A stretch of 64,000 bases of DNA, taken from NCBI RefSeq assembly GCF_003334765.1, contig NZ_QOWT01000012.1, one strand, 5' to 3'. The position numbers and the translations under genes were made by a program. Within the stretch, counting starts at the first letter, position 1, and every line of letters begins with the position of its first letter. Positions 27,890-31,388 of the stretch are shown here, in pieces. The notes below the pieces were generated by a model. The model was given only the letters and a program-made list of their open reading frames with translations. It searched no databases and was not told the DNA's origin. This stretch comes from Escherichia coli. GTDB lineage: Bacteria > Pseudomonadota > Gammaproteobacteria > Enterobacterales > Enterobacteriaceae.

Positions 27890-28942
27890 TCAGTCATCCG
27901 TATCAGAAAAGTTTTTACGCGTTTTTACCTGCGCCATGCTTTCCAGAATACGGTGATAGTTTTCGAAACGGGTTTCCGCGATTTTCCCTTCCTCAACCGC
28001 TTCCCGGATAGCGCAGCCCGGATCGGTATCGTGTTTGCAATCGCGATATTTACACAGACCTAAATAGTCATGGAATTCGACAAAGCCCTGAGTGATTTGT
28101 TCCGGCTCCAGGTGCCAGAGGCCGAACTCACGCACTCCTGGGGAGTCAATCACATCACCGCCGTGCGGGAAGTGATACAGCCGAGCGGCGGTCGTGGTGT
28201 GCTGACCGAGCCCCGAGTTGTCAGAGATATCGTTGGTCAGGATCTCTTTTTGCAGCCCCAGCAACGCATTCAGCAGGCTGGATTTGCCGACGCCAGACTG
28301 CCCGGCAAAAATGCTGATGCGCCCGGTCAACGCCTCTTCCAGCGGTTTTAGCCCATCCTGAGTATGGCTGGAAACCATCAATACGCGATAACCGATATTG
28401 CGGTAGATATCCATCTGCTCGTTGACGAACGCCATGCCTTCGTCGTCCAGCAGGTCTATCTTGTTGAGCACAATAATCGGCTCAATCTGCAAGGTTTCGC
28501 AGGCCACCAGGTAACGGTCGATAATATTGAGCGACAGCTCCGGCAAAATGGCGGAGACAATGACAATCTGGTCGATGTTGGCGGCAATAGGTTTTACGCC
28601 GTCGTAGAAATCCGGACGCGTCAACACCGAGGTACGCTCATGCACCGCTTCCACGATCCCTTTGACATTTACGCCTTCCGCCGCCGGTTTACCCGGACGC
28701 CAGACTACGCGGTCGCCGGTTACCAGCGAACGGATGGTACGGCGAATATTGCAGCGGTGAACGTCGCCATCGGCGGATTCCACATCAGCGTGCATACCAA
28801 AGCGGCTGATGACGATACCTTCATCAGGCTCGCCAAACAGATTGTCGTCGTAGTCGGGCTTCTCCTTAGACGTTTTAAGACGACGCTGGTGATTGGCGTT
28901 CACGCGGCGCTGCTGGCCTTTGGAGAGTTTATTTTTACTCAA
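27890..28942 (-). CDS. rsgA: ribosome small-subunit biogenesis GTPase RsgA
   Basis: ORF 27890..28975; start trimmed to TTG (…[13 protein letters not shown]); G-motifs ([14 protein letters not shown]) and C-terminal zinc-finger Cys cluster. Confidence 0.85.
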
Positions 28943-29036
28943 TCGTACAGACTCCTGGTCGCCCCTGATGGGCAAAACATCTATGATACACGCAATTGTG
29001 GATCAATATAGTCACTGTGAATGGGTGGAAAATAGC

Positions 29037-29582
29037 ATGAGTGCCAATGAAAACAACCTGATTTGGATCGATCTTGAGATGACCGGTCTGGATCCCGAGC
29101 GCGATCGCATTATTGAGATTGCCACGCTGGTGACCGATGCCAACCTGAATATTCTGGCAGAAGGGCCGACCATTGCAGTACACCAGTCTGATGAACAGCT
29201 GGCGCTGATGGATGACTGGAACGTGCGCACCCATACCGCCAGCGGGCTGGTAGAGCGCGTGAAAGCGAGCACGATGGGCGATCGGGAAGCTGAACTGGCA
29301 ACGCTCGAATTTTTAAAACAGTGGGTGCCTGCGGGAAAATCGCCGATTTGCGGTAACAGCATCGGTCAGGACCGTCGTTTCCTGTTTAAATACATGCCGG
29401 AGCTGGAAGCCTACTTCCACTACCGTTATCTCGATGTCAGCACCCTGAAAGAGCTGGCGCGCCGCTGGAAGCCGGAAATTCTGGATGGTTTTACCAAGCA
29501 GGGGACGCATCAGGCGATGGATGATATCCGTGAATCGGTGGCGGAGCTGGCTTACTACCGCGAGCATTTTATCAAGCTGTAA
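29037..29582 (+). CDS. orn: oligoribonuclease
   Basis: ORF 28893..29582; start trimmed to [27 protein letters not shown] (DEDD exonuclease motif I), ATG confirmed at 29037. Confidence 0.92.
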
Positions 29583-29707
29583 AATTTTTCCTGGTCACGT
29601 AAGCGCCGGAATCCACTTGCGGCGGCGTGATTTTGACGCTAAATTGAACGTCTTGCTGATAATTTCAGCACTTGAGATAAAAACGCAAAAAAAACTTTTT
29701 TGGGGGG

Positions 29708-29735
29708 TTGCAGAGGGAAAGATTTCTCGTATAAT
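29708..29735 (+). promoter_or_regulatory. sigma-70 promoter for tRNA-Gly array
   Basis: TTGCAG (29708..29713), 16-nt spacer, TATAAT (29730..29735), followed by GC-rich discriminator GCGCCTCC typical of stringently controlled stable-RNA promoters. Confidence 0.7.
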
Positions 29736-29792
29736 GCGCCTCCCGTAACGACGCAGAAATGCGAAAATTACGAAAGCAAAATTAAGTAGTAC

Positions 29793-29868
<76 letters not shown>

Positions 29869-29903
29869 AAATTTGAAAGTGCTGTAAGGCACAGACCACC
29901 CAA

Positions 29904-29979
<76 letters not shown>

Positions 29980-29997
29980 AATTCTTCTCTCAATAAA

Positions 29998-30247
29998 ATA
30001 TCCACAGCGACGCGATGCGTTATTGCTGGTTTTTGTTGTCTCTGACAAACTCTTGTAAACAGAGTTATCCACAGCCTCAGGCTGTAATCTTAATTTCAAA
30101 GAAACTTCGCACGGTGAATAGTATTTTTTTAACCTATTGATAGATAAGTTAAAAATTAAGATTCCGTTTTGTCGAGTCGATCACTTGACGATTTTATTCG
30201 TCTTGAATTGCAATGCGTTTTTATTTTTATTCACAAGCTGTGGATGA
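29998..30247. promoter_or_regulatory. datA: datA-like DnaA-box cluster (DnaA titration / DnaA-ATP hydrolysis locus)
   Basis: DnaA boxes: ATATCCACA (29998..30006), TTATCCACA perfect (30065..30073), TTATTCACA (30227..30235), TCATCCACA on minus (30239..30247); IHF consensus WATCAANNNNTTR on minus at 30130..30142. Position beside the tRNA-Gly array matches recalled datA location. Confidence 0.7.
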
Positions 30248-30248
30248 A

Positions 30249-31386
30249 TCAGGCGTCACGCGGTAACCCTTTTTCAATCACCCGAACCAGACGCTGTTTT
30301 TTCGGCAATTGCACTTCGACTATGCACGCATTTCGTCTCTCTATTTGCTGCGCAATCGCCCACGCTATGTGCTCATCGAGAAGTGGGTGCTCACCTTTAC
30401 GACTTTCCAGCGCTGTCAAAATCGTTTCATCCCAAGGGGCATTGCCTAATGCTACGGCGATATTACGCAGCCAACGCAGGTGACCAATACGACGAATCGC
30501 CGATCCTTCCGTGACTTTTAAAAACTTCTCTTCGCTCCAGGCGAATAACTCAATGAGTTCCGGTGCGTGTAGCGGCTTACGCGGGCTGAAATCCTCTTCT
30601 GTGGTGAGTTGTGAATAGCGATTCCACGGGCAGATAAGCTGGCAGTCATCGCAACCGTAAATACGGTTTCCCATTAACGGTCGCAACTCTTCCGGGATCG
30701 CCCCTTCAAGTTCGATGGTGAGATAAGAGATACAGCGGCGAGCATCGACGGTATATGGCTCGACGATGGCACCGGTCGGGCAAATCGTCATACAGGCCAC
30801 GCATTTGCCGCATCCTTCCTCGACTGGTTGATCCACGGGCAGCGGAATATCGACCAGCAATTCGCCTAAAAAGAAGAACGAACCGGCCTCGCGATTGAGG
30901 ATAAGTGAGTGCTTACCTGTCCAGCCGAGCCCAGCTTTTTCAGCTAACGGGCGCTCGAGAATAGGCGCAGAATCGACAAACGGTCTAAAATTCAGCGAAA
31001 CACAATGTTGCTGAATCATCTCGCCCAGCTTTTTGAGTCGGTTGCGCAGAAGTTTGTGATAGTCACGGCCCAGCGCATAACGGCTAACATAGCCGAGTTT
31101 GGGGTTTTTCAGCGTGCTGGCAAATGCGGCGTTAGCAGGAAGGTAATTCATCCGCACGCTGATCACGCGCAGCGTACCGGGCAATAACTCATGAGGGCGA
31201 GCGCGCAGCATACCGTGACGTGCCATCCAGTCCATTTCGCCGTGGTATTGTTTGTCCAGCCATGCTTGCAGTTTGGGCTCGGACTCGCTGAGATCGGTAT
31301 CGGTAATACCTACCTGCTGAAAGCCCAGTTCCAGCCCCCACTGTTTAATTTTTTGCGCTAACTGATTGAGATCGAGGGGCTCTGAC

Positions 31387-31388
<2 letters not shown>
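30249..31388 (-). CDS. queG: epoxyqueuosine reductase QueG
   Basis: ORF 30249..31496; start trimmed to MSEPLDLNQ; ferredoxin-type Cys clusters (CGKCVACMTICP, CDDCQLICPWN). Confidence 0.88.

Follow-up and report, generated by a model that had tools for sequence, protein, structure and literature searches.

Between a pair of tRNA-Gly(GCC) genes and queG, the E. coli contig analysed here carries a group of DnaA boxes and an IHF-binding site (IBS), and the question raised by this locus is whether it represents datA itself, a relative of datA, or some other assembly of DnaA-binding sequences. The window referred to throughout is the whole stretch of 64,000 nt that was analysed. A first-pass annotation of the same DNA had described four DnaA boxes and an IHF consensus lying between a tRNA-Gly array and queG, and had compared the cluster to datA. 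All five motifs were found exactly where that annotation had put them, and the interval that holds them is a gap of 269 bp extending from the end of the last tRNA-Gly(GCC) gene at 29979 to the queG stop codon at 30249. We assign a probability of approximately 0.96 to the reading that this locus is E. coli datA, based on the identity of the gap to K-12 datA, on published chromatin immunoprecipitation data, and on conservation of the element across species. The match to datA proposed earlier is therefore borne out, and its wording as 'datA-like' was too cautious only in the suffix, the locus being datA proper.

The genes in this region are ordered orn (plus strand), two tRNA-Gly(GCC) genes (plus), the 269-bp gap, and queG (minus), with flanks as in K-12. 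Alignment with K-12 MG1655 revealed that every base from the end of orn into queG is the same except for the absence of one 112-bp tRNA-Gly unit, and that the interval between glyY and queG is 100% identical. The published datA site is intergenic, residing downstream of the glyVXY tRNA-Gly operon and by the 3′ end of queG (PMC10950094, PMC5742627); the gap examined here has tRNA-Gly(GCC) on one side and the queG 3′ end on the other, and the alignment, which could have mapped datA to a different place, maps it precisely to this one. The order, orientation and spacing of the elements are likewise all as published for datA, with box definitions taken from reviews and from a ChIP-seq table. Compared with K-12 datA (94.7 min; the DDAH system), boxes 1, 7, 2, 3 and 4, the IBS, their spacing and the flanking genes are identical, and the difference is confined to the three upstream tRNA-Gly genes of K-12 versus two in the present strain. 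All sequence-level features expected of datA are thus present, and we observed no sequence evidence against this reading. The stretch containing the boxes is 65% A+T, versus 48% for the window as a whole. The identity of datA is already known, such that its recognition from raw sequence was correct and leaves knowledge of E. coli unchanged. RefSeq carries no datA feature, however, and annotates the gap solely as 'yjeV' (17 codons) or as 'hypothetical protein', so that a look-up of annotations would miss datA. A position near oriC, which would have datA duplicated soon after initiation, is expected of this locus; oriC falls outside the window, and the relative distance between datA and oriC is reported to be conserved in 59 E. 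coli genomes (PMC4585315). The features of the locus are collected in Table 1.

Table 1. Elements of the datA locus and its flanks, in window coordinates
Feature	Coordinates	Strand	Details
Probable glyVXY promoter	29708..29744	+	-35 TTGCAG, 16-bp spacer, -10 TATAAT (29730-29735), G+C-rich discriminator GCGCCTCCC
Two tRNA-Gly(GCC) genes	29793..29868, 29904..29979	+	ARAGORN, Rfam and K-12 alignment
DnaA box 1	29998..30006	+	ATATCCACA, one mismatch
glyVXY intrinsic terminator/attenuator	30002..30038	+	3′ half of box 1 (CCACAG) is the 5′ arm of the stem; UUUUUGUUG after the stem
DnaA box 7	30053..30061	+	TTGTAAACA; upstream of box 2 in the same orientation, with a 3-bp spacer
Minimal datA region	30053..30235	+	183 bp, equal to the published length; element order agrees (PMC5742627)
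DnaA box 2	30065..30073	+	Perfect TTATCCACA
IHF-binding site (IBS)	30130..30142	-	TATCAATAGGTTA on the minus strand, TAACCTATTGATA on the plus strand
Invariant or near-invariant spacer positions	30195..30226		T30197, TTG 30203-30205, AA 30212-30213, T-tract 30218-30226; 17-genus alignment
yjeV	30213..30266	+	17-codon ORF; K-12 annotation; overlaps boxes 3 and 4 and the queG 3′ end
DnaA box 3	30227..30235	+	TTATTCACA; oriented as boxes 7 and 2
DnaA box 4	30239..30247	-	TCATCCACA on the minus strand; faces box 3 head-to-head, 3-bp spacer
queG (epoxyqueuosine reductase)	30249..31388	-	Convergent with the tRNA operon; stop codon 1 bp past box 4

The four boxes described at first do not complete the set. 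Among them, only boxes 2 and 3, which are of high affinity, are essential (PMC5742627); box 4 is merely stimulatory, and box 1 is dispensable for DnaA-ATP hydrolysis (PMC5742627, PMC10950094). The box that had been overlooked is box 7, which is of low affinity and is essential. Its position follows from a published DnaA ChIP-seq study, in which the datA peak at 4392740 is reported with the double box cTTGTAAACAgagTTATCCACAg (PMC11317965). This sequence is identical to positions 30052-30074 of the window, within which TTGTAAACA-gag-TTATCCACA occupies 30053-30073, and the match places box 7 immediately upstream of box 2. Box 2 of the window maps to 4392744 in NC_000913.3, and the peak in the paper is labelled NC_000913.2. 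In datA, boxes 2, 3 and 7 are described as sharing one orientation (PMC5742627), and here all three reside on the plus strand. Coverage at datA in the ChIP-seq experiment was 213 times the control, versus 218 and 174 at two oriC regions, which ranks datA among the regions most strongly bound by DnaA in K-12, whose sequence is identical to that of the window (PMC11317965).

The IBS matches the consensus WATCAANNNNTTR when read on the minus strand, and is the sole match between boxes 2 and 3. It fits the two consensus forms that have been published (PMC10950094), and is separated from box 2 by 56 bp and from box 3 by 84 bp, the same distances as in K-12. Across the window, matches to the IHF consensus are not enriched (four found versus 2.2 expected). 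In K-12, IHF has been found by ChAP-qPCR to bind datA after initiation, with binding regulated by glyVXY read-through (PMC10950094). A genome-wide IHF GeF-seq study did not substantially detect datA (PMC8407004), which suggests that occupancy by IHF is transient or weak.

All 5426 complete E. coli genomes contain the gap, 5423 of them at an identity of at least 95%. Beyond the species, one genome per species was scanned for a pattern consisting of box 2, 46-66 nt, TAANNNNTTGAT, 75-95 nt and TTATNCACA, yielding at least 120 loci; given that this number is a lower bound, the absence of Salmonella, Klebsiella and Yersinia from the matches listed is uninformative. In 72 of the loci listed, a convergent queG starts 17-53 bp past box 3, and usually one to five tRNA-Gly(GCC) genes lie upstream. 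Three further listed loci look homologous to datA, with no queG seen after box 3 (L009, L031 and L092). The fetched sequence of L092 stops 10 bp past box 3; in L009 and L031, tRNA-Gly lies at an upstream distance of approximately 1.5 kb, and queG was not matched after box 3. Distances of 1.2-1.5 kb between the tRNA-Gly array and the datA-like element were observed in L022 (Photorhabdus), L009 (a metagenome-assembled Enterobacteriaceae genome) and L031 (Tatumella). The distant tRNA-Gly genes or missing queG match at these three loci suggest that datA is not strictly dependent on its neighbors.

Among the matches listed, the 75 syntenic loci are distributed over Enterobacteriaceae, Erwiniaceae, Yersiniaceae, Morganellaceae and Hafniaceae. 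Within them the spacer between box 2 and the IBS measures 55-58 bp and that between the IBS and box 3 measures 83-87 bp, where the search tolerated a deviation of 10 bp in either direction; the spacers of the 45 non-syntenic matches listed are spread across the full permitted range. Although the search did not condition on box 7, all 75 of the syntenic loci listed carry ACA at its positions 7-9, and in 74 of them the spacer that follows reads GA[G/C]. Similarly, ACAGA (30059-30063) is invariant in an alignment of 17 genera. Box 1 is retained in most families of Enterobacterales, exceptions being Serratia, Rahnella, Rouxiella and Mixta, and box 4 is recognizable, at two or fewer mismatches, in just 34 of the 75 listed syntenic loci. 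Conservation of this layout across families supports the model in which datA acts as a looped complex, and goes beyond the 59 E. coli genomes surveyed previously (PMC4585315).

Several of the remaining matches are of a different nature. Those from Chryseobacterium, Bifidobacterium, Bacillus-type genomes and Lachnospiraceae were rejected as datA, having 6-21 boxes within 300 bp on either side in an origin-like arrangement. A group from Sutterellaceae (Sutterella, Parasutterella and a related metagenome-assembled Burkholderiaceae genome) shares a conserved 176-bp element in a context unlike that of datA, built from a perfect DnaA box and its inverted partner, an IHF-like site and a hairpin resembling a terminator, and then a second perfect box (L018, L025, L034, L036, L052, L055, L059, L078 and L010; for example, L059:2539-2714). 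In L059 the ORFs on either side of this element resemble priA and hemE, as judged by motif, and the element could represent an origin or another type of DnaA-regulatory site.

The first-pass annotation had further viewed the gap as a long intergenic region with no promoter role, a description that proved an oversimplification: box 1 lies partly within the glyVXY terminator, a putative promoter for yjeV has been reported, and IHF occupancy is under the control of glyVXY read-through (PMC10950094). A consensus scan of 29560-30320 returned no sigma-70-like site. The scan likewise did not call the segment that we list as the glyVXY promoter, which was read directly from the sequence; this segment is the probable source of read-through across datA, a role reported for the glyV-X-Y promoter (PMC10950094). 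For the yjeV promoter, the same report describes a limited requirement. We found no case in this locus of boxes placed over a sigma-70 promoter of a conserved downstream gene. The only plus-strand ORF downstream is yjeV, whose ATG occurs, among the 17 genera aligned, in E. coli and E. albertii only, and a conserved gene is thus unlikely. A conserved TTGAAT followed by the T-tract was considered as a promoter on either strand and was dropped, as no acceptable -10 element could be discerned by eye.

The RNA hairpin of the terminator at box 1 is predicted to fold with a free energy of -14.3 kcal/mol (z = -2.3). Another terminator-like hairpin, at 30169-30191, was rejected for its lack of minimum-free-energy support (z = -1.3) and its merely partial conservation. 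At 30071-30085, starting in the 3′ end of box 2, a further hairpin with a perfect 6-bp stem (ACAGCC-TCA-GGCTGT) is observed, and its conservation does not extend even to E. albertii.

Whereas K-12 carries three tRNA-Gly genes (glyV, glyX and glyY), the present strain carries two, lacking the equivalent of one tRNA together with a glyV-glyX-type spacer. The absence of this 112-bp unit brings the read-through promoter 112 bp nearer to datA, a shift that might affect read-through, and with it the timing of datA, in this lineage. The two-gene form occurs exactly in several other strains. At a coverage of at least 80%, a two-copy query matched 626 and a three-copy query 3798 of the 5426 complete E. 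coli genomes; from these indirect counts, approximately 1000 genomes probably carry other numbers of tRNA-Gly copies. A search of the locus against Rfam returned just the two tRNAs above threshold. A sub-threshold match to YrlA, a Y RNA-like family (29818-29956; 40.3 bits versus a gathering threshold of 69), was read as a tRNA-like artefact.

By analogy with K-12, whose published IHF-dependent DnaA-ATP hydrolysis at datA (PMC10950094, PMC5742627) concerns an identical sequence, a mechanism can be proposed for the present strain, with both binding and hydrolysis resting on those papers. ATP-DnaA would occupy boxes 2 and 3, for which its affinity is high, and would bind cooperatively at box 7, for which it is low. 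After initiation, IHF would bind the IBS and bend the DNA sharply, looping the DnaA molecules on boxes 7 and 2 onto the DnaA bound at box 3, and contact between these assemblies would lead to hydrolysis of the DnaA-bound ATP (DDAH) (PMC5742627, PMC10380432, PMC5835720). ADP-DnaA would then be released and the site would turn over catalytically, lowering the initiation potential and suppressing untimely re-initiation, with direct titration of DnaA expected to make a smaller added contribution (PMC5835720). Timing would be imposed by transcription, in that glyVXY read-through over the IBS before initiation is proposed to exclude IHF; the box 1 terminator and DnaA bound at box 2 would attenuate this read-through, and IHF, once bound, would block it in turn (PMC10950094). 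We infer that the mechanism is the same here despite the nearer promoter. In E. coli, datA is one of four known systems that set the cycle of ATP-DnaA and ADP-DnaA and thereby ensure one replication per cell cycle. DDAH is said to account for a fairly small share of total DnaA-ATP hydrolysis (PMC5835720), and near-normal behavior is reported to be possible in strains from which every extrinsic regulator is missing (PMC11331064).

Could such a cluster have arisen by chance from box-like 9-mers in A+T-rich intergenic DNA, or could it be a cryptic origin similar to oriC? The outcome of a density comparison depends on the consensus that is used. With TTATCCACA at one mismatch or fewer, the four matches in 250 bp form the sole such cluster in the window (P = 0.0025 when the window's own 25 matches are placed uniformly), and the only two perfect matches to TTATNCACA (and to TTWTNCACA) in the 64 kb both fall inside this gap. 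With the loose consensus TTWTNCACA at one mismatch or fewer, the window contains 115 matches, or 1.8 per kb, and four in 250 bp are reached by 53% of 1000 Markov-simulated 64-kb sequences as well as at two other places in the window. The suggestion that box density exceeds background consequently holds under the stringent consensus and fails under the loose one, and because the latter does not single out the locus, density is not our main evidence; the motifs are real, but their density by itself would not prove function. What decides against chance is that the gap is identical to the experimentally defined datA and conserved across an order. With regard to an origin, the boxes and IHF site do resemble the left half of oriC (R1-IBS1-R5M and onwards), where boxes of high and low affinity in the same orientation likewise flank one bending IHF site, the bend allows DnaA oligomers to interact as at datA, and two boxes are paired across a 3-bp 'gag' spacer (cTTCCTGACAgagTTATCCACAg) in the form seen for boxes 7 and 2 (PMC11317965). 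However, a search of 29980-30250 for the oriC 13-mer GATCTNTTNTTTT at up to two mismatches gave no match, leaving the gap without this unwinding element, and the gap contains a single GATC, at 30179. The box-to-box distance around the IBS is also longer at datA (PMC5742627); IHF binds datA after initiation and oriC before it; and the outcome at datA is ATP hydrolysis, while that at oriC is unwinding, with no DnaA-ATP hydrolysis observed (PMC10380432). We accordingly give no weight to either the chance or the origin reading.

A more substantial rival is the original model of datA, which was found and named as a DnaA titration site: a pure sink would bind many DnaA molecules and lower the amount of free DnaA with no catalytic hydrolysis. 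The very high ChIP signal speaks for such a sink, and reviews also state that direct titration occurs, on the grounds that point mutations in box 2 or the IBS merely reduce it (PMC5835720). Yet point mutation of the IBS, box 2 or box 7 is phenotypically equivalent to deleting the locus entirely, and what looks like titration has been described as 'largely explained by the DDAH activity' (PMC5835720). Moreover, simple titration has no need of an IHF site at a fixed distance, whereas the spacers are held to within 4-5 bp in five families among the listed loci, which argues for a specific looped complex, and conversion of ATP-DnaA to ADP-DnaA in vitro, dependent on both IHF and datA, has already been published for K-12. 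Titration as the sole activity therefore seems very improbable. The remaining possibility, that the element serves transcription termination through its hairpins and yjeV, draws on the overlap of the terminator hairpin with box 1, the second short hairpin over the 3′ end of box 2, the attenuation of read-through by DnaA bound at box 2 (PMC10950094) and the K-12 yjeV annotation that covers boxes 3 and 4. Outside Escherichia, though, the boxes are conserved and the yjeV start codon is not, the box 2 hairpin does not persist even in E. albertii, and conservation falls on the sites for DnaA and IHF and on the distances between them rather than on the hairpins. Published genetics links the boxes and IBS to control of replication initiation, and mutations in these elements are reported for K-12 to alter initiation timing while glyVXY and queG termination remain intact, leaving a termination role for the element as hardly credible, less so even than pure titration.

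The locus can also be compared with DARS2, another non-coding chromosomal cluster of DnaA boxes that is gated by cell-cycle-timed binding of IHF and is strongly bound by DnaA in ChIP-seq (PMC11317965). Its effect is the opposite of that of datA, as release of ADP regenerates ATP-DnaA (PMC10380432). In addition to Fis, DARS2 requires a core of three boxes (I-III), and it is located elsewhere on the chromosome, upstream of mutH (PMC10380432, PMC11317965).

Within the spacer between the IBS and box 3, the 17-genus alignment reveals a set of invariant or near-invariant positions that fit no DnaA, IHF or promoter consensus and that lie approximately as far to the right of the IHF site as boxes 7 and 2 lie to its left. 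That they form an unrecognised functional element of datA is a speculative and rather unlikely proposal. Were it so, one possibility is that they provide a docking surface that is reached across the IHF loop by DnaA oligomerized at boxes 7 and 2. Another is that they are the site for a factor that is reported to be needed for timely dissociation of IHF (PMC10950094).

Box-like sequences also occur elsewhere in the window. Four loose matches in 250 bp are found at 28791-29040, in the rsgA-orn region just upstream of datA, and in the yjeT-purA intergenic region at 41761-42050, with no further 250-bp stretch of this kind in the window. Over the whole window, the 25 nine-mers within one mismatch of TTATCCACA compare with 11.2 expected, a number reached by none of 100 dinucleotide shuffles, and 21 are still present when the four datA boxes are set aside. 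Two overlapping one-mismatch boxes on opposite strands (AGTGGATAATCCACA) are located at 638-652 in the dsbD/dicD region; this site is absent from the 16 DnaA-bound regions reported by ChIP-seq (PMC11317965), and the pair is probably coding sequence.
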